DNA of 52,656 nucleotides from Arenicellales bacterium (GTDB taxonomy: Bacteria > Pseudomonadota > Gammaproteobacteria > Arenicellales > Poriferihabitantaceae): contig JAPYNL010000095.1 in assembly GCA_028285795.1 (NCBI GenBank), positions 1-52,656 on the forward strand. The letters are read 5' to 3'. Below the pieces are notes generated by a model that saw only the letters and a program-made list of their open reading frames with translations, ran no database searches and had not been told where the DNA came from. The position numbers and the translations under genes were made by a program. Shown in pieces: positions 1 to 49,517 of this stretch; the first letter of the stretch is position 1, and each line of letters opens with the position of its first letter.

Positions 1-1
1 C

Positions 2-913
2 TATAACATTGTTCCACCCTGTTTTGACACTGATCAGCCTGTCGCATGGTCCCCCGTTTGGTCATTCAGCCAAAATCGCCATCGCTACCTTCCGACGGCA
101 ATGCTCTACGGAATGACGCCGGAGCAACGCGGCACGGTCAAGCTTTGGGCCGACTCGAACGGATGCGCTGCGGGCAACACGCTTGAGGAGGCCATTCTGC
201 AGGGATTTTTTGAGCTTGTCGAGCGCGATGCATTTGCAGTCTGGTGGTATAACCGTACACAATGCCCCGGTGTTGACCTGAACAGCTTTGGCAGTGACTA
301 CCTCTCTTACGCACCGCACTATTATGAAAAGCACAATCGGGATATGTGGGTTTTGGATATTACCAGCGATCTCGGCATTCCCTGTTTTGTCGCACTCTCG
401 CGGCGCATGGACCGCGAGCCTGAAGACATCATATACGGTGCGGGTGCTCACATGGATCCCGCCATTGCCATTTTGAGGGCGGTCTGTGAATTGAATCAAT
501 GCCTGGCCCTGGTTCCAAATCCCGTTCAAGGTTCCGAGCATTACAGGATTGACGATCCCATGTGCCTGTCGTGGCTGAAAAACATCAAGGCCGGGGAACA
601 CCCCTATCTGAATCCCAGCGAAACTCACCCAATCCGAGTTCATGGCGATTTCAGCATTCTCGGCAGTGAAGACATGAAAGAAGACATTGAATGGATTCAG
701 GCATTGATCGAGGGGAAGGGCATGGAGCTATTGGTGCTTGACCAGACTCGCCCCGATATCGGCATGCCGGTGGTTCGCGTGATCGTGCCGGGTCTTCGTC
801 ATTACTGGGAACGATTCGCACCCGGAAGGCTCTATGACGTGCCGGTCGACATGGGATTGCTTCACGAGAAGACGCCGGAGGAAGAATTGAATCCGCTACC
901 TGTCATTGCCTAG
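2..913 (+). CDS. YcaO-family azoline-forming cyclodehydratase (SagD/TOMM type), C-terminal ~300 aa; 5' end outside window
   Basis: The frame is open from base 2 (YNIVPPCFDTDQPVAWSPVW... precedes the first Met at 101). YcaO hallmarks are present: SNGCAAGNTLEEAILQGFFELVERDAFAVWWYN, GIPCFVALS, GAGAHMDPAIAILRAVCELNQ, and a Pro-rich C-terminal tail GRLYDVPVDMG...LNPLPVIA. Confidence 0.85.
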   Translation, partial: YNIVPPCFDTDQPVAWSPVWSFSQNRHRYLPTAMLYGMTPEQRGTVKLWADSNGCAAGNTLEEAILQGFFELVERDAFAVWWYNRTQCPGVDLNSFGSDYLSYAPHYYEKHNRDMWVLDITSDLGIPCFVALSRRMDREPEDIIYGAGAHMDPAIAILRAVCELNQCLALVPNPVQGSEHYRIDDPMCLSWLKNIKAGEHPYLNPSETHPIRVHGDFSILGSEDMKEDIEWIQALIEGKGMELLVLDQTRPDIGMPVVRVIVPGLRHYWERFAPGRLYDVPVDMGLLHEKTPEEELNPLPVIA

Positions 914-1504
914 TTGCAGTTGCAGATCGAGACAAGCCGCAAGAGGTTTTGGTTGGGAATTGAGCATGGCTTGAGACTGAGTTCGCTTGGTCATCCCCGT
1001 CATGCCTGCCTGGGATTTTCCGGCCAGCGAGTTGCCGCATGGAGCGCTCACGCCATGGATTCGGCATTTTTCGCATTCTCATGTAACATAGAGCCATCTT
1101 GCTGCCGCATGGGGCAAGCATTACGCCTTGAGAGTGCCTTCTCATTTTTGGGTTCGGGACACTGTGATCCGAAGTCGGGTCGGAGACAGGCAGGTCGGTT
1201 TTGGCCTGCATTTCCATTCTGACCGGTCGAGTCAGTGACCAGGCATGTCCAGCTTAGCCGGGGATATTGCAGGCAATTCATGCCTTCCCCGTTGTGTTGC
1301 ATCGACTCTAGCCATGCACCTGAGTGCACCGGATTCGGCATGATTTCATGACTCGCAGCATCCTTATTACATATTGGATGCCATTAGTGGGACTTCGTCA
1401 CCATCACAATTCCACGAACTTGTCGGTTTTGATTTTCCGGCCCCGGCGAATTTACGGCAGTCGGTCGACAGACTGATATTCGTTCAAAAATATTCAAAAA
1501 AGTA

Positions 1505-1534
1505 TTGACAGGGGGGAGGAGTGTAGGCTAGCAT
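1505..1534 (+). promoter_or_regulatory. candidate sigma70-type promoter for the precursor gene
   Basis: TTGACA (1505-1510), 18-nt spacer, TAGCAT (1529-1534). It lies upstream of a strong GAGGAGG Shine-Dalgarno (1578-1584) and the ATG at 1592. This is a motif match only. Confidence 0.35.
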
Positions 1535-1591
1535 GTTAAAAATAAGGAAAAATATCTCTTAACTGTAGTAATCTTTTGAGGAGGACTAGCT

Positions 1592-1846
1592 ATGAAATCA
1601 CTTGACCAAATGCATGACCATCTGCTTGCCAAGTCAGCTCAGGATCCTGAATTCAGGCAGGCGTTGATCGCAAATCCGAAAGAAGCAATCGGCAAAGAGC
1701 TGGGTATTGAGTTTGCCGACGATGTTGAACTTCATATCCACGAGAGTGACATGAAAAGCCTTCACCTGTCACTTCCTTTCGACGGAGAAATGACTGAGGA
1801 ACAGCTTGAAGCAGTCGCCGGCGGACTGTGCTGCTGCATGGGCTGA
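1592..1846 (+). CDS. NHLP (nitrile hydratase leader peptide) family RiPP precursor; predicted core LCCCMG after a double-glycine cleavage site
   Basis: The 84-aa ORF has a strong RBS. The leader LAKSAQDPEFRQALIANPKEAIGKELGIEFADDVELHIHESDMKSLHLSLPF resembles the two ends of NHase alpha (see 20411-21025) but lacks the metal-binding centre. The leader ends MTEEQLEAVAGG, with hydrophobic residues at -4, -7 and -12, as in double-glycine leaders. The core is codons 79-84 (1826-1843), LCCCMG. Confidence 0.9.
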   Translation: MKSLDQMHDHLLAKSAQDPEFRQALIANPKEAIGKELGIEFADDVELHIHESDMKSLHLSLPFDGEMTEEQLEAVAGGLCCCMG

Positions 1847-1888
1847 CTAGCCTGCAACGGCCTTATTGGTCGCTGTTTACTTGGTGGT

Positions 1889-1921
1889 CGCCCCATGTGT
1901 CTGCAAGGCATGCATGGGGCG
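1889..1921 (+). terminator. stem-loop just downstream of the precursor gene (possible partial terminator/attenuator)
   Basis: CGCCCCATG (1889-1897) pairs perfectly with CATGGGGCG (1913-1921). It is followed by TTCCCGTTTCC, which is only a weak U-tract. Confidence 0.35.
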
Positions 1922-2123
1922 TTCCCGTTTCCACCTGCCCCGTCTTTCTGCCTTGATTTCGACCAGCCCGTGTGTTGTTGAATCCTAGCCCCGGGCCGGC
2001 TTTTACCCGGCACATATTCGTCAACCCTGTCGCAACCCTGCCTGGACATCTGCATGATGCCCGTCAAGCGGGCAGCATCCCCGGTTTTCCCGCCGCGCCG
2101 CGCCCAATAACGGCGGTTTTAGG

Positions 2124-4478
2124 TTGATGCTGGAAAGAGCCAGTCAAAACACGGGTTCTTTTTCCGCCAGCTTTTCCTCATGGGTCGTTGAAGGACGACT
2201 CATGGCTATCATGATCAGCGTTATCCTCACTGCCGTCGCGGCCTCGGGCATGAGCTTTCTTCAATTGTCGAGTAGCTACCGAATCATGTTTGACGAAAGC
2301 AATCCCGAGCTGATTGCACTCGAACTACTGGAAGATACCTATGGAAAAAGCGATAGCGTTGTCTTTCTGATTGTTCCGGATAATGGCGATGCCCTGTCAG
2401 CCCAAGCCATGGAGGCAACCCTTTGGCTGACAGAGCAGGCATGGCAGACACCCTATTCGACAAGGGTTGATTCAATCACCAACTTTCAGCATACAACGGC
2501 ACGGGACGATGACCTTTTCATCGAAAATCTTGTCGATTCAGAGGTGTTGGGTGATCCCGTCGAGATCGAACGAATCCGGGAAATCGCCTTGTCCGACCCG
2601 CGATTGGTCGGCAAGCTGATTGATACTGCCGGGAGCGTGAGCGTTGTTCTTGCAACCATTGCCATTCCCGAAGAATCCCAAATTTCCGCATTCGCAGAAA
2701 CTGCGGAGTTTGCGCGAAATCTCGCCACCCGTGCAGAAAGCCAGTACGAGGGACTCGATCTTCGGCTGGCTGGAACAGTCATCCTCAACCAGGAGTTTGC
2801 GCAGGCAGCGGTAAACAGTCAGAAGGTTTTCCTGCCGCTCAGCCTTCTGATCATGGCTCTGCTTCTTGCGATTCTTACGCGTAGCCTGATGGGTGTTCTG
2901 GCGACCAGCATCATTATGATATTTTCGGTTCTCATATCCCTGGGACTGGGCGGCTGGATAGGCTTGGTACTCTCACCGTCTACTGCGCCGGCACCGACCA
3001 TCGTGCTGATGATCGTGGTGGCGAACTGTGTTCACGTACTGGTAGCCCTGCAGCAGCGACTCGGTTCCGGTGACACGAAAAAAAATGCAGTCAAGGAGTC
3101 CGTCCGGGTCAATTTGCATCCGATTTTTCTGGCAAGCGTTACCACAGCACTTGGCTTTCTCGCAATGAATTTTGCCGAAGTGCCGCCGCATCGCCACCTT
3201 GGCACATTCGTCGCACTTGGGCTTTTGGCATCGTTCATGCTGTCGGTCACATTGCTGCCCGCCCTGCTGAGCCTATTCCCGCTTCGTGCACAGAAGGTGC
3301 TTGTGCAGGATGATCCGCTGATGACCCGAATGGCAAAGGGCGTTCTGCGGCATCGAAAAGTCCTGTTGATGGGTTCGTTCCTGGGTGTAGTGATGCTGAC
3401 GGCACTGATTCCACGCAATGAACTGAATGATGTATTTACCCTGTTTTTTGCCAAGCGCGTCGAATTTCGACAGGATATGGACTTTCTTGACGAACGCCTC
3501 GGCGGCAACGGCATCATCGAATACTCGCTGGTGTCCGCGGAAAACATTGCAGACCCCGGGTTTCTGGCGGATGTAGAGGCATTTGCTGGGTGGTATCGGG
3601 CACAGCCGGCGGTGCGAAATGTATCGGCGATAACCGATACCCTCAAGCAGGTCAATCAGTCCCTGCATGGCGATGATCCCGATGCATATCGGCTTCCGTC
3701 CACGACCGAACTTGCCATGCAGTACCTGTTGCTGTACGAGTTCTCGTTGCCGGTTGGCCTTGACTTGAACAACCAGGTCAGTCTGGACAAGACGTCAACT
3801 CGATTGACGGTGACGACCGGCACGCTATCTTCAAACGAGATGCTGGAGCTCAATCAGTCTGCGGAGCAATGGATATCCGACAACGCGCCGAACATCATTG
3901 AAGCGAAAGGCTCCGGCCCGGCAATCCTGTTCTCCTATATTGCTCAACGCAGCATAAAGTCAATGCTGCTCGGCACGGTATTTGCGCTGGCCGGCATATC
4001 CTGCGTGCTGGTGCTTGCCTTTCGTTCACTTCGACTGGGCTTGATCAGTCTGGTTCCAAACTTCATGCCGATCATCATCGGCTTTGGGGTCTGGGGGCTT
4101 GCAGTAGGCGAGATAGGGTCGGCCCTGTCGGTAGTCGCGGCGATGACAATCGGCATCGTGGTTGATGACACCGTACACTTCCTGAGCAAATATCGCCGTT
4201 GTCGCAAGGAATTGGGCTACGATCCCGAACAGGCAGTGATCTATTCATTCCAGACTGTCGGAAAGGCTATTCTGATGACGACCATCATACTGGCAGCCGG
4301 ATTCCTGATCCTTGTATTTTCACCCTTCATACCAACAATACAGGTGGGAATACTGGTTTCGATCATCATTGTTGCGGCTCTGCTTTGTGATTATTTGACA
4401 CTCCCGCCCATACTGGTCATTGCCGATCGGTTTATAAATCCGCAGAGCAAGCTGACTGAACCCGGTCAGCCCGGATGA
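2124..4478 (+). CDS. MMPL/RND-superfamily exporter (HpnN/MmpL-like, 12 TM)
   Basis: 784 aa, with a TTG start in the ORF track. There are two blocks of hydrophobic helices, each preceded by a large soluble loop. RND-type TM motifs are present, e.g. MTIGIVVDDTVHFLSKY and LLASFMLSVTLLPALLSLFP. Confidence 0.85.
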   Translation: MMLERASQNTGSFSASFSSWVVEGRLMAIMISVILTAVAASGMSFLQLSSSYRIMFDESNPELIALELLEDTYGKSDSVVFLIVPDNGDALSAQAMEATLWLTEQAWQTPYSTRVDSITNFQHTTARDDDLFIENLVDSEVLGDPVEIERIREIALSDPRLVGKLIDTAGSVSVVLATIAIPEESQISAFAETAEFARNLATRAESQYEGLDLRLAGTVILNQEFAQAAVNSQKVFLPLSLLIMALLLAILTRSLMGVLATSIIMIFSVLISLGLGGWIGLVLSPSTAPAPTIVLMIVVANCVHVLVALQQRLGSGDTKKNAVKESVRVNLHPIFLASVTTALGFLAMNFAEVPPHRHLGTFVALGLLASFMLSVTLLPALLSLFPLRAQKVLVQDDPLMTRMAKGVLRHRKVLLMGSFLGVVMLTALIPRNELNDVFTLFFAKRVEFRQDMDFLDERLGGNGIIEYSLVSAENIADPGFLADVEAFAGWYRAQPAVRNVSAITDTLKQVNQSLHGDDPDAYRLPSTTELAMQYLLLYEFSLPVGLDLNNQVSLDKTSTRLTVTTGTLSSNEMLELNQSAEQWISDNAPNIIEAKGSGPAILFSYIAQRSIKSMLLGTVFALAGISCVLVLAFRSLRLGLISLVPNFMPIIIGFGVWGLAVGEIGSALSVVAAMTIGIVVDDTVHFLSKYRRCRKELGYDPEQAVIYSFQTVGKAILMTTIILAAGFLILVFSPFIPTIQVGILVSIIIVAALLCDYLTLPPILVIADRFINPQSKLTEPGQPG

Positions 4479-4872
4479 CTGGGTCATTTCGAACTTCACT
4501 GCCGGCAGTCGTGAAAAAATTCGGAAATTTCGTGTCGGACCTTCAGTCCCGGGCCGGGTTCATGAATGTCGATATCAACGGTTTCCGTTTTTCCAGCCGC
4601 GTCCCGGATCTCTCTTCAATGCCGGCATGCGATTCTCGTCATGTCCGGCTGTCCCGGTTCTCCGTCTTTTCCCGCCGGGTTGACGGACCGTGAACTCGGC
4701 ATCTGCGCCGAGTTCGGTCATTGACAAATTAGGCGATCCGAATCCCGGAGGTTTTCTGGCTGCTTGCGAGCATTGGACCAGTGCCTCATTTTCGTTGGGC
4801 ACAGGTGAATGCTTATCCGGGCTTCATGAAAGAACCGGAGCCCTTCCCTGCCAGAATCCGGGTATCCTGGCT

Positions 4873-4901
4873 TTGCACTTCATGGTGATTGTTTCTATAA
4901 T
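4873..4901 (+). promoter_or_regulatory. candidate sigma70 promoter upstream of the orphan gene and export genes
   Basis: TTGCAC (4873-4878), 17-nt spacer, perfect TATAAT (4896-4901). It lies ~130 nt upstream of the ATG at 5029. This is a motif match only. Confidence 0.4.
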
Positions 4902-5028
4902 CTTTCTAGTAGTATCGGCTAGTTGAAAACAGGAAGTCGTGACCTGTATTTGCAGACATGCCAACCAAACCCGCATGACCGGCTGTTGAAGTCGAGTCCG
5001 GGTACCCGGCAAAAATTGACCCGTATCG

Positions 5029-6168
5029 ATGGACCCCCTTGAAAAACATAAGATTTGCGAACGCAGAATGGCATCGGAAGCCGAGAACCTCGGGCAGGTA
5101 ATCGAGCAACTTGGTGATTTTATTCCACTGGAATTAATTGATGAAAATGCCAGGAAACGGATTATCAGTCAAACGGCGAATCTTCCTTCGACTTTGGCGG
5201 TATTTCCATTTGGATTCGAACTAGGCATGGACAAACCGCAAAAAGGGGCTGACCTGGGTGTTACAGTGGTAGGCGGGGATACCCGAACCGCCGATTATTT
5301 CAGGAATCAGGGGAATTGCAGCGGTGCGACACCGAGTCTTTCGGGCTTTGCAGAGCTGTTATCGGAAATCGATGGCACCAACAGCATACTATCCGGAATC
5401 ATGAGTCGCAATTTCATGCTCGAGTTTGACCTTGCATCGGCCAGGGGCATTGCATGCCCACCGCCGGGTCTTTGCATGAGACCGCATGAGAACATGAGAA
5501 ATCAGGAGCATCGATTGGCCGATGAAGTGTCCGCAATCGCCAATGCGATGGTAAATGCGGTTGGCTGGCAATTCGATCTTGAAGATCAGTGCATTGTGAA
5601 AAAAGTCTGTACAGCGCTTGAGCCCCACATGAGCCTCGAAACGCTTGCGGTTTTTCCGGGACGCAGAAAATTCATACGCATGGCGACCGCTGGGTATCGA
5701 AATTGTGATGAAGTGGTCAATTATCTGGATCGAATAGGCTTGAACCGGCAGAATCGTTTACATGTTGAGCCTCTTCTAGCCGCTCTTGAAAGGCGGGTTT
5801 CCATTCCACTTCTGGGTTTGAGCCTGGATATTGAATCCGGAACATTTGGCAACACCCTGGGCATCAGCTTGTATCTGAACACACAACCCCCAGCGGCTTC
5901 CGGTTTCTGGATAAACAGTCCCACTCTATGGGATGAGGCTCTTGAGTCTCTAAATGCCCATGATTACGGAATTTCCGAGAAACTGTCTGCACTCAAGCGT
6001 TTTCAAGGTCCCCCCAGGATGCTGCTTGGAAAATCCGGCAACCTGTTGCTGATTCGCGGGATAAACCATTTGAAGCTCACGCTGTGCGGCGATCGAATTG
6101 ATGGTCTGAAAGCCTATATTTATTTCCTGCTTTGTCCATGGCCTGAATGCCTTCAACCGTCGGAATAG
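5029..6168 (+). CDS. hypothetical cytoplasmic protein (379 aa), orphan member of the RiPP cluster
   Basis: Long ORF, co-directional with and tightly packed against the HlyD-like gene. No signal peptide or TM segment is seen. I recognise no family motif. Repeated strand-turn-strand segments are present (LLGLSLDIESGTFGNTLGISLYL; GINHLKLTLCGDRIDGLKAYIYF). Confidence 0.6.
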   Translation: MDPLEKHKICERRMASEAENLGQVIEQLGDFIPLELIDENARKRIISQTANLPSTLAVFPFGFELGMDKPQKGADLGVTVVGGDTRTADYFRNQGNCSGATPSLSGFAELLSEIDGTNSILSGIMSRNFMLEFDLASARGIACPPPGLCMRPHENMRNQEHRLADEVSAIANAMVNAVGWQFDLEDQCIVKKVCTALEPHMSLETLAVFPGRRKFIRMATAGYRNCDEVVNYLDRIGLNRQNRLHVEPLLAALERRVSIPLLGLSLDIESGTFGNTLGISLYLNTQPPAASGFWINSPTLWDEALESLNAHDYGISEKLSALKRFQGPPRMLLGKSGNLLLIRGINHLKLTLCGDRIDGLKAYIYFLLCPWPECLQPSE

Positions 6169-7043
6169 TCGTGTTTTTTGAAGAAACCATCGACGACCGT
6201 AACGAACGCAAGAGGCTTGACTTGTTGTTGCGGGTTGCATTTCCTTGCCAGCAGCTTGTTGCCGGCTTTCTTTTTGTGGCAATCATCACGCTTGTACTGT
6301 GGGGGGTTTTTGGCAGCATGCCACGTACAATGACGGTTGAGGGATTGCTTGTCAAGGCGGGGAAGTTTCATGAAGTGGCAATGCATGATTCGGGAAAAAT
6401 TGTCGAATTGCATGTTTCGGTTTCAGACACCGTCTCCCCGGGAGATGCCATTGCGAGACAGACTGTGCCTGGACTTGATCGGGAAATTGCATATTTACAG
6501 GACAAGGAAGAACGGCTAAGGAAGAAAATCCCGGAAAATACCGGAACGCATGCCGATATCAATTTGCTGGAATTAACCGGGGTCGCCCTCCTGCAGCTTG
6601 AGGCACAGCGGGCCTCTCGTTCACAGGTCGTCAGTCACGGCGGAGGAGAAGTCGAAGCAATATACGCAACGAGTGGGGAATTCCTGAATGCTGGCAGTGT
6701 ACTGGCCAGAATCCGGGAACAGGATGCCTTGGTCGATCATGTGGTAGCCACTGTGCCTGCAGGCATTCTCGAGCACATCCATCCGGGATCACTGGTTGAA
6801 GTTGACATTCCGACAACTGATGGCAACCTGCTGCGCATGCCCGGAGAAGTGGTCTCACTGACGGATGCCTCCAATTTTCAAAATACTGTCGAGAACTTGC
6901 TGCCTCCCGGGGATGGAGAAGCTCATGTGGGCATTGCCTTCGAGAAAAAGCCGGATCTGACGGATATTCATGAAGGCACGCCCTGCCGTATTCGGGTCAC
7001 GCTGGAACACGACGCCCCGTTTAGAATTCTTGGCTTCGGATAG
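6147..7043 (+). CDS. HlyD-family membrane-fusion/secretion adaptor of the NHLP-type export system
   Basis: N-terminal TM anchor LVAGFLFVAIITLVLWGVFG followed by a barrel-sandwich/lipoyl-like segment (GKIVELHVSVSDTVSPGDAIARQ) and a short coiled region. The true start may be the GTG at 6171, directly after the upstream stop. Confidence 0.8.
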   Translation: MPSTVGIVVFFEETIDDRNERKRLDLLLRVAFPCQQLVAGFLFVAIITLVLWGVFGSMPRTMTVEGLLVKAGKFHEVAMHDSGKIVELHVSVSDTVSPGDAIARQTVPGLDREIAYLQDKEERLRKKIPENTGTHADINLLELTGVALLQLEAQRASRSQVVSHGGGEVEAIYATSGEFLNAGSVLARIREQDALVDHVVATVPAGILEHIHPGSLVEVDIPTTDGNLLRMPGEVVSLTDASNFQNTVENLLPPGDGEAHVGIAFEKKPDLTDIHEGTPCRIRVTLEHDAPFRILGFG

Positions 7044-7058
7044 TCTTGCCATTCCTCC

Positions 7059-9263
7059 ATGAGTCAAACGAGAGCCAAGCGAGACAGGATAGGGCACCGC
7101 ATCATTACGCCGCTGGTGCTGCAGTCGCACGTCACGGAATGCGGCGCAGCGTGCCTCGGGAGCGTGCTTGCCTATTTTGGGTTGTGGATACCCCTGTCTG
7201 AACTTCGCACGCTTTGCGAAGTAAGCCGAGATGGTTCCAGCGCTGCCGGCATCAAGCGGGCTGCAAAGTCCTTTGGCCTTGACTGCAAGGGTCGAAGCGC
7301 ACCTAGTTCCAGCGTGCTGCGGGGCATGTCCCTGCCCCTGATCCTGTTTTGGGAATTCAATCACTTCGTGATTCTGGAGGGCTTCGATGCGAAGCACTTC
7401 TACATTAACGATCCCGCTTGCGGACGCCGCAGGTTGACGGCCGGGAAATTTGATCAAAGCTACTCTGGAATCGTTCTGGAATTTCAGCGCAGTGCAGATT
7501 TTCAGAGTGGAGGAAAGCGCCCGAGCCTGTTGCAAAGAGCCCAAATGTGGCTGGCGGGAACATCCAGGCAAATTGTCGCCTGCATCAGTTGCGGCTTGTT
7601 GCTCATTGCCCTCTCCCTGGCAATACCTCTGCTGACAGGCATATTTGTCGATCATGTGCTCCTGGGCGACAAGCAGTGGGGATTGCAGATCGCGGCCGGG
7701 CTTCTGGCGGTTGCACTGCTTGTTTATCCGCTAACCCTATTCAAGCAGCGATGGCTGAAACATCTTGCAGCACGCGTATCGGTTGTTGCGGCAGACCATC
7801 ATGTTTCACGACTGCTGCGATTGCCATATGAATATTTCTGTCATCGATTTGTCGGAAGCCTGACGGTACGCATTTTATCGGTTGACAATATCGCACGAGC
7901 GTTATCCCGGCATTTTTTGCAGTTTCTCATGGATCTGGCAATGATCACCGTGTTTCTTCTGGCGATGGCATTTTTATCTCCCGAATTGACGCTGGTTGTG
8001 CTTGCTCTAACGATTGTCAATTTTTTTCTTGCCTATCTGGTCGCCAACATTCAGCTGGATAAAAACATGATCTTGAGGAGCGAACAGGGGCTGATGGCGG
8101 GTATAAGCGCCTTGCTGTTCAACAAGGCGGAAATCCTGCGTATCACGGCAAGCGACGATACCTTTTTCGCACGCTGGGGAGGACACCAGGCACGAGAGCT
8201 TGATGCATGGCAGAGTCTTGCAGGATGCCGCCATATCAGTGCCAGCCTGTCCGTTTTGTTCCTGCTCCTTGGTCATGCCGCAGTGTTGACATTCGGTGCC
8301 GAGCAGGTTGAATCAGGAGAATTGACGCTTGGTCAGCTGGCTGGCTTCTATATTCTTGTACTGATGTTCCTGTCTTCTGCGGGTCACTTTTTCGGGTTCG
8401 TCAATGCACGCCACATGCTCGATGCCGATATGCAGCATCTTGACGATATAACCGGTACTCAACTCGCGCGAATCCGCACATCCGAGACGGATGCCAGTCT
8501 GGAGCAGGAGGCAGTTTCGACTCTGAATGGTCAATTGAAACTGTCGGGGCATGTCGAATTCCGCAATGTCACATTCGGCTATAACCGATCCAGAAAGCCG
8601 CTGATCGAGAACTTCAACCTGACTATTGAGCCGGGTCAGCGGGTTGCGCTGGTTGGCTCGAGCGGTTCCGGAAAATCATCGGCTGCATCAGTGCTTGCCG
8701 GATTTTTTGAACCGTGGTCGGGCGAAATACGGTATGATGGCTATCCACTCGCCGAGATCCCCGGCAATTTGCTGTCGCGCTCAATCTCGCTGATTGACCA
8801 GCATGTGACGTTGTTTGCCACCACAGTGCGCGAAAACATCACTTTGTGGAACCCTTCCATTCCAGAGAAGACAATGATTGCCGCAGCGCGGGATGCAGCG
8901 ATCCATGACGTCATTCTCAGTCGACCTGAAGGATATGAAACACGGGTTGAGGAGGGTGGGGCAAATTTCAGTGGCGGTCAGAAGCAGCGGCTGGGAATCG
9001 CACGTGCGCTTGCGAGTGAACCGACTTTTGCAATTCTTGACGAGGCAACCAGTGCGCTGGATGCAAAGGCCGAGGAACTCATTGACAAGGCATTGCGCCG
9101 GCGAGGAATGAGCTGCCTGATCATTGCGCATCGATTAAGCACAATTCGTGATTGTGACCGGATTGTCGTGCTGGACAAGGGGGGTGTCGTTCAGCAGGGA
9201 ATCCATGACGAACTGATCAGTGACAGGGACGGACTCTATTATCAACTGGTTCAGGCGGGTTAG
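7059..9263 (+). CDS. ABC exporter with N-terminal C39 cysteine peptidase domain (double-glycine leader-cleaving peptidase/permease/ATPase)
   Basis: C39 catalytic residues are present: QSHVTECGAACLG (Cys), FNHFVILEG (His), YINDP (Asp). It has six-TM ABC membrane domains, Walker A GSSGSGKSS, signature FSGGQKQRLGIARAL and Walker B FAILDEATSALD. Confidence 0.92.
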   Translation: MSQTRAKRDRIGHRIITPLVLQSHVTECGAACLGSVLAYFGLWIPLSELRTLCEVSRDGSSAAGIKRAAKSFGLDCKGRSAPSSSVLRGMSLPLILFWEFNHFVILEGFDAKHFYINDPACGRRRLTAGKFDQSYSGIVLEFQRSADFQSGGKRPSLLQRAQMWLAGTSRQIVACISCGLLLIALSLAIPLLTGIFVDHVLLGDKQWGLQIAAGLLAVALLVYPLTLFKQRWLKHLAARVSVVAADHHVSRLLRLPYEYFCHRFVGSLTVRILSVDNIARALSRHFLQFLMDLAMITVFLLAMAFLSPELTLVVLALTIVNFFLAYLVANIQLDKNMILRSEQGLMAGISALLFNKAEILRITASDDTFFARWGGHQARELDAWQSLAGCRHISASLSVLFLLLGHAAVLTFGAEQVESGELTLGQLAGFYILVLMFLSSAGHFFGFVNARHMLDADMQHLDDITGTQLARIRTSETDASLEQEAVSTLNGQLKLSGHVEFRNVTFGYNRSRKPLIENFNLTIEPGQRVALVGSSGSGKSSAASVLAGFFEPWSGEIRYDGYPLAEIPGNLLSRSISLIDQHVTLFATTVRENITLWNPSIPEKTMIAAARDAAIHDVILSRPEGYETRVEEGGANFSGGQKQRLGIARALASEPTFAILDEATSALDAKAEELIDKALRRRGMSCLIIAHRLSTIRDCDRIVVLDKGGVVQQGIHDELISDRDGLYYQLVQAG

Positions 9264-9267
9264 GGAG

Positions 9268-12204
9268 ATGAATCCAGCTGAATCCCCCCCTCTGCATGTC
9301 TTCTCCCGAAATCGCGGCATTGCCGTGCCATGTACCGGAAATACGCCAATTGACTTAAGCGATGATCAATCGGCATGGTTCATAGAAAAAGGCGAGGTTG
9401 ATGTTTTTCTGATGGAAGAAAAAGACGGCGTCCCCATCGCCGCGCCTCAGCACATGATGCATCTCGGTGCAGGGCGCTTGATCATCGGCACAACACCCAG
9501 TCATGAAGAGACAACACTTCACCTTATTGCAAAAGGCATTCAGAATACGACCATCAGGCATCTTTCTCTGGATAGCCTGTCAGACATCGATGTGACAGCG
9601 GTGGCGGAACAAATTGATCAATGGATTGAAGAGGTTTCGAACATGCTTGCACGATTCAGTTCGGAAGCGGGTCCAATCGATCAAGTCATCTCCCGGAACC
9701 CGGCAAAAGCATATGACCCCGGTATTGTTGCTCCCAGGCAGGGAGTAATGTGGATCTCAGGCATAATGTCGGGATCTGCAACTTATCTTGGGCTTCTCGA
9801 TCCGGCCGAGAGCAGTCCGGACAGTGCTGAAATATTCAGCTTATTGCCGCTGGCACGCAAGCTTTGGCTTGAACTGGCTGAATCGCAACAATTATCGGTG
9901 CAATGTACCAAATCGGTAATCCGGAATGGCTTGACAGACGAAGCATTGAGAAAGTTTCACGTTCTGGCACTGTCCATTGAGAGGCTGAATCGCAAATTGG
10001 CGATTGCCGATCAGGTTAACTTGGCGCGTGATCGAATCGCAAACCGCAAAACGGATGAAGACATTGCGCGTCATCAGCTATTCGACCTGCATGGCATTTC
10101 GGAAGATTCGGAACCGAGGAGTGATCGGACATTTCTGCATCAGGCCCTCGAACGGATCGGCCAGTATGAAGGAATCGAATTCAAAAGCCCGAGTCGCGGT
10201 CTTGCACGAGAAGAACGTTTGGGTGGAGGCGCCTTGCTGCGCGAGATTCTTGATGCCTCAGGCGTTCGTTTCCGTCGGGTAAGCCTGAAATCAGAAGACA
10301 AGTGGTGGCAGAACTCCTACGGTGCCATGCTTGCCTTTCTCCAGGATGGTGAGTGCCCTGTTGCCCTGATACCCGATCGGTTGGGCGGTTATTCTGCGGT
10401 TGATTCCAAAACCGGGCAAAAGGTCAGGGTCGGTACGGGTTTTGCCAAGTCGCTGCAAAAGGGAGCATGGGTTTTCTACGCGCCATTGGATAGCGATGCT
10501 CGGCGCGTCAAAGATCTTTTTGCCCTCGCCTTCAGGGGATCCGGGATCGCCCTTGCTCAATTGTTCGTGGGTGGTGCAGTTGGAAGCCTGTTGATGCTGA
10601 TCCCTGCTGTTTTTCTGGGGATTCTGGTCGATGAGGTCATTCCCGGCGGTAATTCAGGTCAGTTGTATGCGCTTGGTGCCGTGCTGACGGTAGTGGCATT
10701 TCTGGCGGCCGCCTTGCAGTTCTATCAGGGCATGATGATCATGCGCGTCGAGGCACGAGCCATGACTCGTGCAGAGTCCGCATTCATGAGTCGATTGCTG
10801 CATCTGCCATCGCGTTTCCTGCAGACCTATTCGGCCGGCGAACTCGCGACGCGAAGTCAAAGCTTTCAGATACTCCGTGAAGCCATGCAGAAACTGGTTT
10901 CCGATGGATTGCTGTCGACCATGTATCTTGTGGCTGCCTTGTTGGTCTGTTATTTCCATGATCCGACATTGGGCAGTGTTGCAATCGTTGTCGGTCTATT
11001 CAGCCTGGTCGGGACGATTGTACTGGGCGCACGTCAGATCACGCCATACATGGATGTGATTGGTTCCGTGCAGAAGCTGGCAGGACAGGTGTTTCAATTG
11101 ATCAGCGGAATCTCAACCCTGATTCTGGAAGGAGCCCACGGATCTGCATTTGCAGTATGGGCGAGGTCTTATCGTGAGCGGCATCAAGCCGAATTCAGGC
11201 ATAACCGCATCGAATCACATGTGCAGGCGTTTGGTGCGGCAATGCCCCTGATTGGCATTGCCTGCCTGCTCCTGGCATTTGTCGTGTCTGCTCCTGAAAA
11301 CCTGACCACAGGAAAATTTCTGGTCGTCACTGTCCTGTTCCTGATTTTTCAGAATTCGGTTAGGAGTTTTGCAAATTCTTTTGACTTGATTGCAGCCATA
11401 CTGGCCTCGACCAAACTGATCGCGCCGCTGATTCAGGAGAAACCGGAGACCATTACCGAGTCTGAACCGGTCGATTCACTGAGCGGTGATATCAGGATTG
11501 AACATGTCAGTTTCCGGTATTCTCATGATAGCCCGCTTATCGTTGATGACCTGTCGATGCAAATTCGGCCGAATGAATTCGTTGCCATAACCGGCGAATC
11601 CGGTTCCGGCAAGAGTACGCTACTGAAGCTGCTGCTCGGAATCGAGAGCCCGGTCAGTGGTTCGGTGTATTACGACGGGCGTGACCTCAGGCATCTCAAT
11701 TTGAAACAGGTTCGACGCAGAATCGGAGTGGTGCCCCAGTCTGTTCAGGTTTATCCGGAAGATCTCTGGGACAATATTGCTGGCAAGCAGATCGACATGG
11801 AAGCGAAGAGAGTTTGGGAAGCTGCCGAGCTTGCTGTCATCAGAGATGAAATCATGGCAATGCCCATGAAGATGTCAACAAGTGTCGGTGCAGGGGAAGG
11901 GACTACATCCGGTGGTGAAAGCCAGCGTACCATGCTGGCAGGGGCATTAATTTCCCGGCCCAGTATCGTGATGCTGGATGAGGCGACGACCTGGCTGGAT
12001 AATGGCAGGCAGGCAAAAGTCATGGAAAACCTGGACGCATTGAATACAACCCGAATCGTTATTGCGCATCGATTGTCGACCCTGCGCAAGGCAGATCGAA
12101 TTTACGTACTGGAAGCCGGAAGGCTGGTTGAACAAGGCAGTTTCGATGAGTTGATGGATAGAGAAGGTGTATTCTTTCATCTGGCGCGGCGACAATTGGC
12201 CTGA
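9268..12204 (+). CDS. second ABC exporter subunit with N-terminal cyclic-nucleotide-binding-like domain and a Cys-less C39-like domain
   Basis: cNMP-type beta-roll segment: AWFIEKGEVDVFLMEEKDGVPIAAPQHMMHLGAGRLIIG. C39-like region without a catalytic Cys at ~aa 330-440. Walker A GESGSGKST, signature TSGGESQRTMLAGAL, Walker B IVMLDEATTWLD. The ATG at 9268 follows the upstream stop at 9261-9263. The ORF track's GTG at 9220 is an alternative start. Confidence 0.9.
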   Translation: MNPAESPPLHVFSRNRGIAVPCTGNTPIDLSDDQSAWFIEKGEVDVFLMEEKDGVPIAAPQHMMHLGAGRLIIGTTPSHEETTLHLIAKGIQNTTIRHLSLDSLSDIDVTAVAEQIDQWIEEVSNMLARFSSEAGPIDQVISRNPAKAYDPGIVAPRQGVMWISGIMSGSATYLGLLDPAESSPDSAEIFSLLPLARKLWLELAESQQLSVQCTKSVIRNGLTDEALRKFHVLALSIERLNRKLAIADQVNLARDRIANRKTDEDIARHQLFDLHGISEDSEPRSDRTFLHQALERIGQYEGIEFKSPSRGLAREERLGGGALLREILDASGVRFRRVSLKSEDKWWQNSYGAMLAFLQDGECPVALIPDRLGGYSAVDSKTGQKVRVGTGFAKSLQKGAWVFYAPLDSDARRVKDLFALAFRGSGIALAQLFVGGAVGSLLMLIPAVFLGILVDEVIPGGNSGQLYALGAVLTVVAFLAAALQFYQGMMIMRVEARAMTRAESAFMSRLLHLPSRFLQTYSAGELATRSQSFQILREAMQKLVSDGLLSTMYLVAALLVCYFHDPTLGSVAIVVGLFSLVGTIVLGARQITPYMDVIGSVQKLAGQVFQLISGISTLILEGAHGSAFAVWARSYRERHQAEFRHNRIESHVQAFGAAMPLIGIACLLLAFVVSAPENLTTGKFLVVTVLFLIFQNSVRSFANSFDLIAAILASTKLIAPLIQEKPETITESEPVDSLSGDIRIEHVSFRYSHDSPLIVDDLSMQIRPNEFVAITGESGSGKSTLLKLLLGIESPVSGSVYYDGRDLRHLNLKQVRRRIGVVPQSVQVYPEDLWDNIAGKQIDMEAKRVWEAAELAVIRDEIMAMPMKMSTSVGAGEGTTSGGESQRTMLAGALISRPSIVMLDEATTWLDNGRQAKVMENLDALNTTRIVIAHRLSTLRKADRIYVLEAGRLVEQGSFDELMDREGVFFHLARRQLA

Positions 12205-12273
12205 GCCAGAAATGGGATGGGTTTGCAAAATGCGGCAAGACGGCTGAATGCAGATAAAAATGTTCCGATGTGA

Positions 12274-13191
12274 ATGAAAAGTGGGCAAATGAGCAGCAAA
12301 ATCAAAATCGAAGAACCGCACCTGAAAAAGAAAATTCTCGATTACTACAATTTCAATACGAAAGATTTGTATATGGAATTGTGGAGTCGCGACCACTTGC
12401 ATTTCGGTTGCTTTGAGCCCGGAGAATGCCCAGAACCCACCGAGACGGGGGCAGAATTCCGGGATTCACCGGGATTTGTTCGTGCTCTTGCACGGATGGT
12501 CGATGTCATCATTGCCCCGGCAGATATAGGGCCCGATTCATTTGTGGTTGATGCCGGTTGCGGGATTGGCGGAACCGCCCTGCATTTGGCAAGGAAGTTT
12601 GGATGCAGGGTGATGGGTGTGAACATCGTCCCACTGCATATCGATCTTGCCAGCAAAATGGCCGATGATGAAGGCTTGTCCGATCTACTCGGTTTCAGGC
12701 TGGGCGATTGCTCGCAGCACCTGCCGGCTGAAGACAACTCGGTTGATGTCGTCATAAATATTGAATCTGCCTGTCACTACATTGATCGACAGCAGTTTTT
12801 GCGCGAGGTGTACAGAATACTGAAACCAGGCGGGAAAATCGTTGCATCGGATTGGCTGTACCGCGATGGTGCGTCCGATGAAGAATATGAAAAGTACATC
12901 AGGCCAATCACCGATTCATGGGCATTGCCCAGTCTGGAGTGTCAATCTTCCTATGTTCCGCTGGTGAAAAATGCGGGTTTTCGACTGCTCAGTTTTGGGG
13001 GGTTTGATGGCAAGGATGCAGACAATATAAGGATATTCAGGAATCTGCATCAATTTTTGTTGAAATTCTACATGGCAGGGGTGAATACTCCTGAATTCCT
13101 CAATCTCTTTGAAAAGATACGATCGCTCTACATTGGCTGGAGAGATGGTTTTTTCGAGCTGGGGCATTATGTCGCAGAGAAACCGAAGTGA
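12274..13191 (+). CDS. class I SAM-dependent methyltransferase
   Basis: SAM-binding motif I VVDAGCGIGGTALHLA, an acidic post-I residue (VMGVNI), and motif II/III DVVINIESACHY...LKPGGKIV. It directly follows the ABC genes on the same strand. Confidence 0.85.
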   Translation: MKSGQMSSKIKIEEPHLKKKILDYYNFNTKDLYMELWSRDHLHFGCFEPGECPEPTETGAEFRDSPGFVRALARMVDVIIAPADIGPDSFVVDAGCGIGGTALHLARKFGCRVMGVNIVPLHIDLASKMADDEGLSDLLGFRLGDCSQHLPAEDNSVDVVINIESACHYIDRQQFLREVYRILKPGGKIVASDWLYRDGASDEEYEKYIRPITDSWALPSLECQSSYVPLVKNAGFRLLSFGGFDGKDADNIRIFRNLHQFLLKFYMAGVNTPEFLNLFEKIRSLYIGWRDGFFELGHYVAEKPK

Positions 13192-13538
13192 GCGATTTTG
13201 GTGCGTTCGCTGAAAGAGGGAAAGACGGGTGGTTGCCCAGTTTGAAAGCCAGCTCTGGACCTGCACGGCTTCAGCCGGAATCCCGCCTTGAAAGCGTGTC
13301 TCAAGTGAGATGCAATTGCAGGCCCTAATCGGCAGGACTGTCATGCCTGCCCAAACATCCATGCTCCATGTCCGTGCTGACCATCCGCTCAAGCCCAGGA
13401 CGCATTCACTGGCGTTGGCCTGACACTCCCGGATACGCATCCTGTTGACCCGCATGGCGAAGGAAGGCGGGTTGCCTGCCGAACCGGATGCCTACGATGC
13501 CTGGTTTCGGGCCAGGATGCAGGAGGCTCGGGGGCTGA

Positions 13539-13823
13539 TTGGCGGGAAGTGCCGTGCACGGTCTTGAATGGAGGGCCACGGCCATCGAAGATCCACTGCG
13601 ATTGTCGATTACATCTCCGACGGCAATCCGGCCACCGCCGGGGCTCTCGAAGGATGAAATCGAGGACAAGGCGTCAAAGCTGCCAGAGCATCTCCTGATG
13701 TACCGCGTGGACAGCATCGATGGTGCCCGCGGGATCGTCATGCGCCGAAACTGCATCGTGTTCTATGCGGAGAACCCGGATACCGCAGCAATTCTGCGTG
13801 TTGTGCATGAAGCACGGCAATGA
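13539..13823 (+). pseudogene. decayed ParE/RelE-family toxin gene (with remnants of a ribbon-helix-helix antitoxin upstream, ~13395-13560)
   Basis: The C-terminus NCIVFYAENPDTAAILRVVHEARQ is ParE-like. The middle of the ORF reads nonsense (PLRLSITSPTAIRPPPGL), while an alternative frame reads the expected IVDYISDGNPATAGAL. This implies compensating frameshifts. Upstream fragments LHVRADHPLKPR... and ...DAYDAWFRARMQEA resemble pieces of an antitoxin. Confidence 0.45.
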
Positions 13824-13936
13824 CCGGATCGCGGATCGGTCACTTGCCGACACCCGTATGCCTGGCGATGTCCCGTGTTTTTTCAGCAGGTTTTTTCCGT
13901 ATCAAATTACCCTCTAAAGGTATTATCATAGGACTC

Positions 13937-17979: not shown

Positions 17980-19353
17980 ATGAGACAGAATAGAAATGAA
18001 CAGATAACCGAGATCGTGAACCTGTTGGGAAGAAATTCACGGGGCCTTTCGCGTGGTCAGATTATGGAAAATCTTTCATTTTCCATAAATATAAAAACAT
18101 TACAGAGAATTTTGTCGCTTCTTTCAAAGGAGGAACGAATACGAAAAACCGGCGACAGAAAAGCGACGAAATACTATCCAATTCCATTTCCTCAACCGGA
18201 ATTTAAAGGACAAAAAATCCAGGAAGAAAGCAAGGCATTCAGTCTGGAAAGCAGAAAAGCCCTGGAATTTCTCGGCTTGCCGCTTCATGCGCGCGAAAAA
18301 GTGTCCTATAAAAGAGAATTTATCGAGGGCTATACTCCAAACGAGACCGTATATGTTCCCAAGGAGCGGCGAGATGCGCTGCTCAAGGCCGGAAAGCGGT
18401 TTGACCATGTATTGGCAGCGGGAACCTACGCACGTCAAATTTACCGGCGACTCCTGATTGACCTATCCTATAACTCCAGTCGACTGGAGGGCAATACCTA
18501 CTCAAGACTGGATACCCGAAAACTTGTGCAGGAAGGCATGAGTGCTGAAGGCAAGGCTGATGAGGAAACCGTCATGATCATGAATCACAAGGAGGCCATA
18601 TTATTTCTTGTGGATAACGCACAGGATATCGAGCCGAACCTGTTTACAGTTTTCAACCTCCACAATTTGCTGGCACAGGACCTGCTTGCAAATCCCGAAG
18701 CCTGCGGAAACATCCGGAAGATGGAAGTCGATATAGGAAAATCCACATACAAGCCATTGGGCAACCCGCATGCGCTCAGGGAGTTGCTCGAACTTATTTT
18801 GCTGAAGGCCAGAAAGATCGAAAATCCCTTTGAGCAAGGTTTCTTTTTACTGGTTCACCTGTCCTATCTACAGGCATTCGAGGATGTTAACAAGCGCACT
18901 TCGAGGCTGAGCTGCAATATTCCGTTTATCAAGAAGAACCTGTGTCCGCTGAGTTTCACGGATGTGTCAGGCAATGACTATACTGCGGCATTATTGGCGG
19001 TTTACGAAAAAAACAATATTAAACCCATGCTGGATCTGTTCTGCTGGGCTTATGTGTGTTCCTGTAGGCAGTATGGCCTCGCAAAGGAGTCTTTGGGTGG
19101 AATCGATGCCTTTCGAATCCAGTACCGTCAGCAGCGAAAAGAAGCGATGGGCATGGTCGTTCGAGAGGGGTTGCACGGCAAGGATATCGAAAATCACATC
19201 GAGAAATACTGTGCTGAAAGGGATATAGAAGAGTTTGATAAATTCATGGCAATGACGCTCGCTGACCTGGACTCCCTGCATGCAGGCGTAATCGCCGGGC
19301 TTGGCATTTCAGAAACACAACTGAATGTATGGCTGGATGCCAGACTGGAGTAA
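17980..19353 (+). CDS. Fic/Doc-family protein with N-terminal winged-helix domain; non-canonical active-site motif
   Basis: The Fic-fold core has ...FLLVHLSYLQAFEDVNKRTSRL... where canonical Fic has HPFxDGNGRxxR. His is replaced by Gln and the second Gly by Lys, as in Doc. The N-terminal ~70 aa look like a wHTH (SRGQIMENLSFSINIKTLQRILSLL). The gene is visibly AT-richer than its neighbours. Confidence 0.8.
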   Translation: MRQNRNEQITEIVNLLGRNSRGLSRGQIMENLSFSINIKTLQRILSLLSKEERIRKTGDRKATKYYPIPFPQPEFKGQKIQEESKAFSLESRKALEFLGLPLHAREKVSYKREFIEGYTPNETVYVPKERRDALLKAGKRFDHVLAAGTYARQIYRRLLIDLSYNSSRLEGNTYSRLDTRKLVQEGMSAEGKADEETVMIMNHKEAILFLVDNAQDIEPNLFTVFNLHNLLAQDLLANPEACGNIRKMEVDIGKSTYKPLGNPHALRELLELILLKARKIENPFEQGFFLLVHLSYLQAFEDVNKRTSRLSCNIPFIKKNLCPLSFTDVSGNDYTAALLAVYEKNNIKPMLDLFCWAYVCSCRQYGLAKESLGGIDAFRIQYRQQRKEAMGMVVREGLHGKDIENHIEKYCAERDIEEFDKFMAMTLADLDSLHAGVIAGLGISETQLNVWLDARLE

Positions 19354-19500: not shown

Positions 19501-19755
19501 TTATTTCATGTCTTTTGCAATATCCTCCAGAGCTTTCAGCCATATCCGATAATAGTCATCGCTATTGTGGATTGCCGCGTGCATTTCGTGGTTTTTGATC
19601 AGTCCTGCAAGTTGATCAGACCATTCTGTCCACGAAAAAACCCCCTGTTCATTCAGATGCACGGCCATCGCAAATGCACGTGCCTGCCAGGGCGCATCAA
19701 AAACCGGTTCGCCTCCGGACTCGGGCTGCCCCGGAAGTGGACGAATCCTTGTCAC
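19501..19755 (-). CDS. nitrile hydratase accessory/activator protein (small, beta-subunit-homologous)
   Basis: 84 aa. It begins with PVFDAPWQARAFAMAVHLNEQGVFSWTEW, as NHase accessory proteins do. A 4-bp overlap couples it to the beta subunit gene. Confidence 0.75.
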   Translation of the reverse strand: MTRIRPLPGQPESGGEPVFDAPWQARAFAMAVHLNEQGVFSWTEWSDQLAGLIKNHEMHAAIHNSDDYYRIWLKALEDIAKDMK

Positions 19756-48325: not shown

Positions 48326-48392
48326 TTTGATCGGAAGTCACGAGACGGACCCCCCATTACAAGATAACGTCGAAACAGTCTGATTCAAAATA

Positions 48393-49478: not shown

Positions 49479-49517
49479 AATCGGGAATGACTGTAGTATC
49501 TATCCGAGCAAGCATAA

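Follow-up and report, generated by a model that had tools for sequence, protein, structure and literature searches.

The window analyzed in this study, positions 1 to 52,656 of contig JAPYNL010000095.1 from an Arenicellales bacterium (assembly GCA_028285795.1; "the window" denotes this whole 52,656-nt stretch), opens inside a gene and carries at positions 2-13191 a run of eight same-strand open reading frames (ORFs) belonging to a cluster for a peptide made on the ribosome and modified after translation (RiPP). These encode a YcaO cyclodehydratase, a precursor of the NHLP (nitrile-hydratase-like leader) type, an MMPL-type RND transporter, a 379-aa protein that we call the orphan, a short HlyD-like adaptor, two ATP-binding cassette (ABC) exporters (ABC1 and ABC2), and a methyltransferase. 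An earlier note on this DNA had described the run as uninterrupted, and every ORF indeed lies on the + strand where that note placed it. The cluster extends over ~14.6 kb, from 1.39 kb to the left of the window to position 13191; housekeeping genes, which are not kept beside related clusters, lie 3′ of the methyltransferase gene, and the housekeeping proteins of the window have counterparts of 90% identity or more in metagenome-assembled genomes (MAGs) from uncultured Gammaproteobacteria. The set of precursor, MMPL, orphan, short HlyD, ABC1, ABC2, methyltransferase, and fused YcaO genes is shared with other genomes, and it recurs around homologues in dozens of them, which makes the grouping more than chance. 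The RND pump, the orphan, and the methyltransferase, all syntenic in relatives from other genomes, are real cluster members.

The first ORF (2-913, + strand) holds the C-terminal 303 codons of a fused winged helix-turn-helix (wHTH)/E1-like/YcaO cyclodehydratase similar to SrpC. Even truncated, it matches PF02624 with 254.6 bits and TIGR03604 with 222.4 bits, above the cutoff of 219.25. As a stand-in for the left flank of the window, we used metagenome contig L002, owing to its 99.95% identity to the window over 11.8 kb; in this copy, the full gene encodes 768 aa, starts ~1.39 kb to the left of the window, and combines an N-terminal winged helix (PF21084) with the TOMM leader-binding/E1-like domain TIGR03882 (109.5 bits versus a cutoff of 36.9) and the SagD-type YcaO domain TIGR03604 (263.2 bits versus 219.25). 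Along its whole length, the protein can be aligned with LynD (4v1t, E 2.8e-152), TruD, and MusD. Upstream of it lie small opposite-strand ORFs and an ABC importer operon. The earlier note had suggested that both E1-like/RiPP recognition element and dehydrogenase partners of the YcaO may lie to the left. The former is there, fused into the YcaO itself; as for the latter, no flavin mononucleotide (FMN) dehydrogenase, nitroreductase, or ThcOx-type oxidase (SagB/McbC/ThcOx) was found in the window or in the 8.4 kb upstream. A ThcOx-like azoline oxidase gene is likewise present in only 4 of 80 related loci (described below). Given the lack of an azoline oxidase, the rings should be thiazolines and not thiazoles, in line with what is reported for SrpC. 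Members of the YcaO superfamily can also install thioamides or amidines in place of azolines, and a thioamidation model of the McrA type does appear as a secondary match of this protein. We consider such a chemistry highly improbable here, as the enzyme passes the azoline-specific TIGR03604 and TIGR03882 models and is a full-length homologue of LynD and TruD, the scan of the cluster ORFs showed no TfuA gene, and SrpC has been shown to make thiazolines (PMC10858898).

The precursor gene (1592-1846, + strand) encodes 84 aa. Its 78-aa NHLP leader (1592-1825) ends in MTEEQLEAVAGG, the recognition and double-glycine cleavage region, and is followed after the GG by the core LCCCMG and the stop codon (1826-1846), so that the precursor reads ...MTEEQLEAVAGG|LCCCMG at its end. 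It scores 67.0 bits against TIGR03793 (cutoff 50.9); together with the score of the truncated YcaO, this profile match bears out the earlier note's assignment of both families. Over its full length, the precursor is 53% identical to SrpE (83 aa, E 1e-31), whose leader sequence was taken from the supplement of PMC10858898. The window's recognition motif is MTEEQL, an instance of the (L/I/M)TEEQL motif reported to be recognized by YcaO and SrpI (bioRxiv 10.1101/2023.06.09.544420; PMC10858898). Close precursor homologues carry the cores LSCCGL and LSCGF, and the cores of related loci more broadly comprise LCCCW, LCCCG[FLIVG], LCCC, RCCC, LSCC[LVAM], and LSCGF. The Cys-rich character of the core is strictly conserved among these loci. 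The window's core shares LCCC with the LCCCW of srp but terminates in -MG, not -W, and LCCCMG itself is absent from the 80 related loci examined. The precursor sequence is present on at least 16 public contigs. An initial impression of rarity, from four matches to the precursor in a word-indexed search, was dropped, as it was for the orphan, after the exhaustive profile search described below.

To place the cluster among its relatives, one genome per species was scanned with a degenerate pattern from 22 closer orphan sequences, which yielded 289 loci with an orphan relative, of which the best 80 were examined and, after clustering of their ORFs, classed by core as xCCCW (n = 35), xCCCGx (n = 17), and LSCCx (n = 11). 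These 80 loci come from MAGs of Gammaproteobacteria and Alphaproteobacteria, Binatia, Nitrospirales, Acidobacteriota, Gemmatimonadota, Opitutales, Thermodesulfobacteriota, and others, and many of the MAG names (Poriferihabitaceae, Porisulfidus, Spongia_Bin9) suggest sponge symbionts. Their commonest precursor end is ...EEQLEAISAG|LCCCW. As this is the srp signature, we assign the related loci to the srp family, the sponge-derived proteusin RiPP clusters of Nguyen et al. 2021 (JACS, doi 10.1021/jacs.1c03474) as summarized in PMC10858898, PMC10286304, and bioRxiv 10.1101/2023.06.09.544420. In srp, the YcaO SrpC makes three thiazolines from the three Cys of the LCCCW core (PMC10858898; PMC10286304), which also gains a brominated Trp through the flavin-dependent Trp brominase SrpI. 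The clusters are spread over symbiont phyla and highly transcribed (bioRxiv 10.1101/2023.06.09.544420; PMC9426513).

The window resembles srp in its SrpE-like precursor, a leader end of the form xTEEQLEA(V/I)(A/S)(G/A)G, the LCCC start of its core, and its fused YcaO, to which the YcaOs of LCCCW loci are 50-53% identical; the orphan-family gene and the pair of a C39-ABC and a second ABC exporter also occur in LCCCW-type loci. It differs in its -MG rather than -W terminus, in lacking SrpI, and in its rearranged gene order, as well as in possessing a SAM (S-adenosylmethionine) methyltransferase, an MMPL pump, and a short HlyD-like adaptor, the marks of the non-Trp subclass. Across the examined loci, a Trp halogenase accompanies 15 of the 35 xCCCW cores and none of the non-Trp core classes (one locus with both core types has one). 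Methyltransferase-family genes show the reverse distribution, being present in 12 of 17 xCCCGx loci and 9 of 11 LSCCx loci versus none of the 35 xCCCW loci. Of the xCCCGx loci, 14 further carry an MMPL orthologue (as do 43 of all 80 loci), and 7 have a HlyD-like adaptor. Neither tblastn nor Pfam found an SrpI-like Trp halogenase in the window or the 8.4 kb upstream, and its core and its methyltransferase, MMPL, and HlyD-like genes place the window in the non-Trp subclass.

We therefore regard the cluster as a brominase-less, methyltransferase- and MMPL-bearing variant of the known srp family rather than an unprecedented architecture, and it very probably is an srp member that forms thiazolines. 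The earlier note had known of no comparable cluster, a view that the identity of the precursor to SrpE and the membership in srp overturn. It had also stated that a near-identical cluster with a known product in the literature would remove the novelty, though not the function. This has come true in part: the family is known and partly characterized, but its mature product is still cryptic.

Some genes of the relatives deserve mention alongside this comparison. An NHLP-toroid fusion of ~433 aa (3880-5181 in locus L046, 3842-5152 in L029), found in 24 of the xCCCW loci, has an NHLP-like stretch of ~80 residues at its start that is 30-43% identical to the window precursor, and an alpha/alpha-toroid-like part with a faint match to squalene-hopene cyclase (E 0.0055). 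In 60 of the 80 loci, an AlkB-GlnE fusion of 670-800 aa (5274-7670 in L029, 5694-7703 in L013), usually encoded just upstream of the YcaO gene, joins an AlkB-like membrane di-iron hydroxylase (His boxes HELVHR, EHVYIHH, NYFQHYG, and QRHADHH) to a GlnE-type nucleotidyltransferase domain; this makes it a near-core gene of srp. Next to the RND pump, relatives also encode LolA-like and DUF1302-like proteins, and further genes among them specify a flavoprotein that faintly matches geranylgeranyl reductase (GGR) and cytokinin-dehydrogenase-like flavoproteins. Taken together, the AlkB-like, LolA-like, DUF1302-like, GGR-like, cytokinin-dehydrogenase-like, and toroid genes of relatives are weak hints of an isoprenoid or lipid moiety. 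The AlkB-GlnE fusion, the LolA-like protein, the NHLP-toroid fusion, and the GGR-like flavoprotein were not found in the window or its left extension, and the absence of the first two fusions is a further difference from srp.

What is new here is the modeled prenyltransferase fold of the orphan (5029-6168, + strand), a conserved "hypothetical" gene beside the srp YcaO; "hypothetical protein" is also the name NCBI gives to one member of the family. The protein has no match among Pfam, NCBIfam, or PDB sequences, none of 103 diverse family members matches a prenyltransferase Pfam family or indeed any Pfam family, and a profile of these 103 sequences finds no match among PDB sequences. The family is not small: an exhaustive profile search over 1.84 billion representatives recovered at least 490 at E<=1e-3, 77 of them at E<=1e-30, and we dropped the notion of a rare protein that the four relatives from a word-indexed search had suggested. 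An AlphaFold2 model built from the 103-sequence alignment (predicted local distance difference test [pLDDT] 94, predicted template-modeling [pTM] score 0.92) displays the repeated helix-helix-strand-strand pattern of the PT barrel. The top 50 Foldseek matches in the PDB are all ABBA prenyltransferases, with probability 1.00 and template-modeling (TM) scores of 0.4-0.6. They include AmbP3, DMATS1 (the best, at 0.58-0.61), 5-/6-DMATS, FamD1, IptA, NphB/Orf2, EpzP, CdpNPT, FunA, PriB, and PatF. An earlier model from only four sequences was poor (pLDDT 51), yet gave the same Foldseek answer. We confidently assign the predicted structure to the ABBA (PT-barrel) fold. At a mean column identity of 27% over the 103 members, charged and aromatic residues are nearly invariant: D75, D134, R212, R217, K318, H347, K349, and Y363 are kept in at least 90% of sequences, and the near-invariant basic and aromatic positions R212, R217, H347, K349, K361, and Y363 lie on predicted barrel strands. 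Most of the residues kept in at least 90% of sequences likewise lie on such strands, a pattern that would fit a charged diphosphate or cation site.

Gene linkage ties the family to NHLP precursors. In 59 of the 80 loci, the next gene after the YcaO, on the same strand and often overlapping it, is an orphan-family gene; in 46, the orphan-family gene has an NHLP precursor gene no more than 1.5 kb away. In the window, the precursor and RND genes stand between the YcaO and the orphan. Distant family members also adjoin NHLP precursors, with or without a YcaO. Thus, L097 and L098 hold a bare pair of a precursor (core ARFIWN) and a PT-like gene, with no YcaO or exporter within 10 kb (9587-11215 in L097); L100 (5996-9041) combines a WDGW core with a Trp halogenase and an ABC set, and no YcaO; L101 (8001-16699) has the core GSGMYW, two PT-like paralogues, a P450, and a cytokinin-dehydrogenase-like flavoprotein, again with no YcaO; and L102 pairs the core KMGMYCIT with a YcaO. 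Of these, L097, L100, and L101, whose precursors have no Cys-rich core, look like further uncharacterized types of prenylated-proteusin cluster. Because such pairs occur in the absence of a YcaO, the family appears to act on NHLP precursors in its own right, and we regard it as a tailoring-enzyme family of these precursors, not an appendage of the YcaO.

The fold and the linkage suggest a function for the orphan: an active peptide prenyltransferase that depends on the leader and represents a new, NHLP-specific sequence family, with the srp peptides then being prenylated thiazoline micro-peptides. We put this forward tentatively, with odds somewhat short of even. The best functional precedent, by analogy, is MppC (PMC12715784), an ABBA prenyltransferase by which a Trp of a Nif11-leader lanthipeptide is geranylated, and only as long as the leader is in place. 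Like the proposed role of the orphan, MppC is a soluble ABBA-type enzyme encoded beside a precursor with a long leader of the Nif11/NHLP clan and acting on the leader-attached peptide; compared by description, it differs in that its target is the Trp indole of a lanthionine-cyclized core, whereas the window's core is Trp-free and of the azoline type. Neither PMC12715784 nor the searchable srp papers, the original 2021 description excepted, mention a prenyltransferase in srp clusters. As LCCCMG contains no aromatic residue, the acceptor would have to be unconventional, such as a thiazoline or Cys sulfur, the backbone, or a terminus.

An alternative is that the ABBA-fold protein is non-catalytic and serves as a partner or scaffold of the YcaO, for example in leader binding or processive cyclodehydration, in which case the product would be a tris-thiazoline hexapeptide, possibly methylated. 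The position of the orphan-family gene directly downstream of, and often overlapping, the YcaO gene in most loci would suit such a role, and so would the poor activity of SrpC alone in E. coli, where it gives partially modified products (PMC10286304). The core, moreover, offers no classical prenyl acceptor. The fold matches themselves include a precedent, since PatF (4bg2) is an ABBA protein of a YcaO-containing RiPP pathway that is inactive. A protein that merely assists the YcaO would hardly be expected beside NHLP precursors in loci devoid of any YcaO (L097, L100, L101), nor would it call for near-invariant charged and aromatic residues of the catalytic-barrel type in so divergent a family; in the window itself, the orphan is also parted from the YcaO by two genes. 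On balance, we judge the scaffold role unlikely and continue with the prenyltransferase as the preferred function.

The last gene of the run (12274-13191, + strand) encodes a class I SAM-dependent methyltransferase (PF08241, PF13649), with orthologues 46-52% identical in many xCCCGx and LSCCx loci. Structurally, it comes closest to small-molecule N-, O-, and C-methyltransferases, among them MitM, sugar O-methyltransferases, and prenyl-diphosphate C-methyltransferases; since these are diverse, the methyl acceptor cannot be named. Family and linkage suggest that the peptide of this variant is methylated, which we place just under an even chance. Prenylation of the same peptide, suggested by the structural model of the orphan, is graded alike, at slightly less than one in two.

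The export genes follow a known scheme with additions. The MMPL/HAE3-type RND transporter (2124-4478, + strand; PF03176, 118 bits, with partial matches to TIGR00921 and HpnN) is a probable exporter of a hydrophobic product. The short HlyD-like membrane-fusion adaptor (6147-7043, + strand; 298 aa; TIGR03794, PF16576, PF13437) overlaps the preceding gene by 22 nt and is ~120 aa shorter than the TIGR03794 model, scoring 76 bits versus a cutoff of 156; its orthologues in L011, L013, and others have a comparable length of 291-300 aa. ABC1 (7059-9263, + strand), a C39 peptidase/permease/ATPase exporter of the NHLM ABC1 type, has TIGR03796 as its best match (E 1.8e-234, 780 bits versus a cutoff of 853) and a PF03412 domain (109 bits). 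The Cys, His, and Asp motifs of this C39 domain are intact (ECGAAC, NHFVIL, and NDP), and it would be predicted to cut the precursor after GG. ABC2 (9268-12204, + strand), a permease/ATPase of the NHLM ABC2 type, matches TIGR03797 best over residues 306-993 (E 9e-194, 646 bits versus a cutoff of 709). Orthologues keep its 300-aa N-terminal domain (9268-10167) to a high degree (mean column identity 60%, ~50 invariant positions), and in searches with the window protein and 10 orthologues, this domain matches no Pfam family or PDB sequence. The earlier note had read a cyclic-nucleotide-binding domain here, a reading that sequence searches do not support, as the same 11 proteins gave no PF00027-like match at E<=1.

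An export set of a HlyD protein and two ABC proteins associated with NHLP and Nif11 precursors was reportedly described by Haft, Basu and Mitchell in 2010. The three export proteins of the window best match exactly the NHLM models TIGR03794, TIGR03796, and TIGR03797, and their genes are adjacent in the order HlyD-ABC1-ABC2, in agreement with the earlier note, which had called an NHLP/YcaO RiPP cluster with this type of export. The window differs from the NHLM system in its additional RND pump, its shorter adaptor, and scores under the equivalog cutoffs, and by these sequence scores its export proteins are relatives of the NHLM system, expected to function in the same way, but not strict equivalogs.

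The combination of contiguous thiazolines and an RND pump raises, by analogy, the prospect of an unlipidated metallophore, in which the three thiazolines chelate a metal, the RND protein exports the product, and the methyltransferase and ABBA protein are peripheral. Thiazoline-rich siderophores such as yersiniabactin and pyochelin exist, some siderophores leave the cell via MMPL/RND pumps, and the core Cys are strictly conserved. A metallophore would, however, be expected to keep different company: there is no TonB-dependent receptor, uptake system, or metal regulator in or beside the cluster, and the ABBA gene, peripheral in such a scheme, is more tightly conserved than the RND gene. We find this reading very unlikely.

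Comparison with other RiPP systems helps to delimit the proposed product. Cyanobactins (LynD/TruD/PatD; PatF/LynF/PagF; AgeMTPT) are related through the heterocyclase, the window YcaO being a full-length homologue of LynD, TruD, and MusD, and the linear cyanobactins of the aeruginosamide/viridisamide type share with the window a short, Cys-rich core and the presence of an ABBA-fold protein and a methyltransferase beside the heterocyclase. Linear cyanobactins carry an N-prenyl and C-methyl-ester decoration. The window differs from cyanobactins in its structured NHLP leader, whose removal would fall to the C39-ABC exporter, and no PatA/PatG-type subtilisin protease domain was found in any cluster ORF; on these two counts, leader and protease, we rejected membership in the cyanobactins. 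The orphan is likewise distinct from the cyanobactin prenyltransferases, having no sequence match to them and being closer to DMATS-type enzymes in size (379 aa) and TM-score. The mpr proteusin (MprC/MprD/MprE; PMC12455567) is similar in its NHLP leader, a YcaO containing a RiPP recognition element that engages an L(X)4L motif, and Cys-derived azolines, and differs in its FMN oxidase MprD, which gives thiazoles, and its ten longer cores, compared with no oxidase and a single six-residue core in the window.

A pathway consistent with these assignments can be proposed. The 84-aa precursor would be made, probably from its own promoter, and bound by the fused wHTH/E1-like/YcaO protein at the MTEEQL region of its NHLP leader. 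In an ATP-dependent reaction, as shown for SrpE/SrpC, the YcaO would then convert the three contiguous Cys of LCCCMG to thiazolines, and the rings would stay at this oxidation level, an azoline dehydrogenase being absent. The ABBA-fold protein, by its fold and gene linkage, may transfer a C5 to C15 prenyl group to the peptide, with a Cys sulfur before cyclization, a thiazoline, the backbone, or a terminus as candidate acceptors. The SAM methyltransferase, by its linkage, may methylate the peptide, the simplest site being the C-terminal carboxylate, as in linear cyanobactins. The C39 domain of ABC1 would cut after Gly-Gly, and ABC1, ABC2, and the short HlyD-like adaptor would export a small hydrophobic product, possibly with a contribution from the MMPL-type RND pump. 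By arithmetic, the neutral monoisotopic mass of the core is 628.18 Da unmodified and 574.15 Da as the tris-thiazoline, with predicted increments of +14.02 Da per methyl and of +68.06, +136.13, and +204.19 Da for a C5, C10, and C15 prenyl group, respectively.

Our best reading, held with moderate confidence, is therefore a tris-thiazoline hexapeptide that is probably prenylated and methylated, cut at GG, and exported, the product of an srp variant in an uncultured gammaproteobacterium. It is supported by the family assignments, all of which pass or top the relevant models, and by the recurrent association, in different genomes, of non-Trp cores with methyltransferase, MMPL, and HlyD-like genes. 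Several points weigh against it. Every step of the pathway in this organism is predicted from sequence, model, or analogy. The prenyltransferase assignment comes from the fold alone, with no sequence link to characterized prenyltransferases, and PatF stands as an ABBA protein of a RiPP cluster without activity. LCCCMG lacks the usual acceptors Trp, Tyr, His, Arg, Ser, and Thr, and the distant members of the orphan family are mostly found beside Trp- or Tyr-containing cores. ABC1, ABC2, and the HlyD-like adaptor all score below their NCBIfam equivalog cutoffs. Finally, the AlkB-GlnE fusion of most relatives is absent here, which may reflect a simpler product or a partial decay, and near-identical strains have deletions in the RND gene and at the junction of the PT and HlyD genes.

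These last two observations also open the reading of a cluster in decay, a remnant that in this lineage yields no mature product. In L003, a 262-bp deletion (window positions 6043-6304) joins the orphan and HlyD-like genes into a 584-aa ORF that lacks the last conserved barrel strands, and in L008, which has deletions at window positions 2541-2811 and 4619-4840, the MMPL gene is broken into 138- and 541-aa pieces; both contigs are 99.5-99.7% identical to the window, and their deletions are either natural loss-of-function variants or assembly artefacts. A cluster in decay would not be expected to look as the window does, with all eight ORFs intact and full length and the conserved residues of the PT and the C39 motifs kept, nor to recur in the same intact arrangement in at least seven independent contigs. 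In addition, srp precursors rank with the most highly transcribed genes of sponge symbionts (bioRxiv 10.1101/2023.06.09.544420). We consider decay improbable and retain the exported, modified hexapeptide as the preferred product.

The srp clusters are widespread over phyla, are reported from sponges with high-diversity microbiomes, and have highly transcribed precursors; the mature molecule and its role are cryptic. The fold of the orphan may point to the missing maturation step. If prenylation is true, it would explain the lipid-type RND and LolA-like export genes as well as the AlkB-like, GGR-like, and cytokinin-dehydrogenase-like genes of relatives, and the orphan family would be a new family of leader-dependent peptide-lipidating enzymes. 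The window itself is a more modest addition, as one more non-brominated, methyltransferase-bearing variant of srp.

The noncoding parts of the cluster offer few regulatory signals. A promoter-like site, TTGACA-18-TAGCAT (1505-1534, + strand; 10 of 12 matches), lies 58 bp upstream of the precursor gene, and another, TTTGCA-18-TATAAT (4872-4901), precedes the orphan gene; such sites are not more numerous in the region than in shuffled sequences, so this evidence is weak. The second site falls inside the spacer between the RND and orphan genes (4479-5028), which at 551 bp is unusually long, measures ~100 bp in the relative L011, and is partly deleted in L008. Two small ORFs in this part (4475-4693 and 4690-4926) were set aside as non-genes, having no family matches and no conservation in relatives, with the spacer partly missing in L008. 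After the precursor gene, a GC-rich hairpin (1883-1935, + strand) is a possible attenuator or stabilizer; the surrounding region (1847-1960) has a minimum free energy of -36.7 kcal/mol with a z-score of only -1.9, and the hairpin was not called as an intrinsic terminator. An Rfam scan of positions 1-14000 found no regulatory RNA, and a repeat scan of the intergenic regions returned only short matches at chance level.

Outside the cluster, a genuine nitrile hydratase operon on the - strand (19752-21025; alpha subunit at 20411-21025, PF02979, 295 bits; beta subunit at 19752-20414) lies only ~7 kb from the NHLP precursor, whose leader is 33% identical to the alpha subunit over 42 aa. A 457-aa protein with a Fic/DOC domain (17980-19353) is encoded just downstream of an indolepyruvate oxidoreductase gene and is apparently unrelated to the cluster. 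At the far end of the window, positions 48250-52656 hold a tRNA-Lys (48250-48325, - strand), a tyrosine integrase (48393-49478), a TraI-type relaxase/helicase (49518-51272), and a type IV prepilin-peptidase-like gene; with a GC content of 65% versus ~50% elsewhere, this region probably represents the edge of an integrative conjugative element that has the tRNA as its insertion site.

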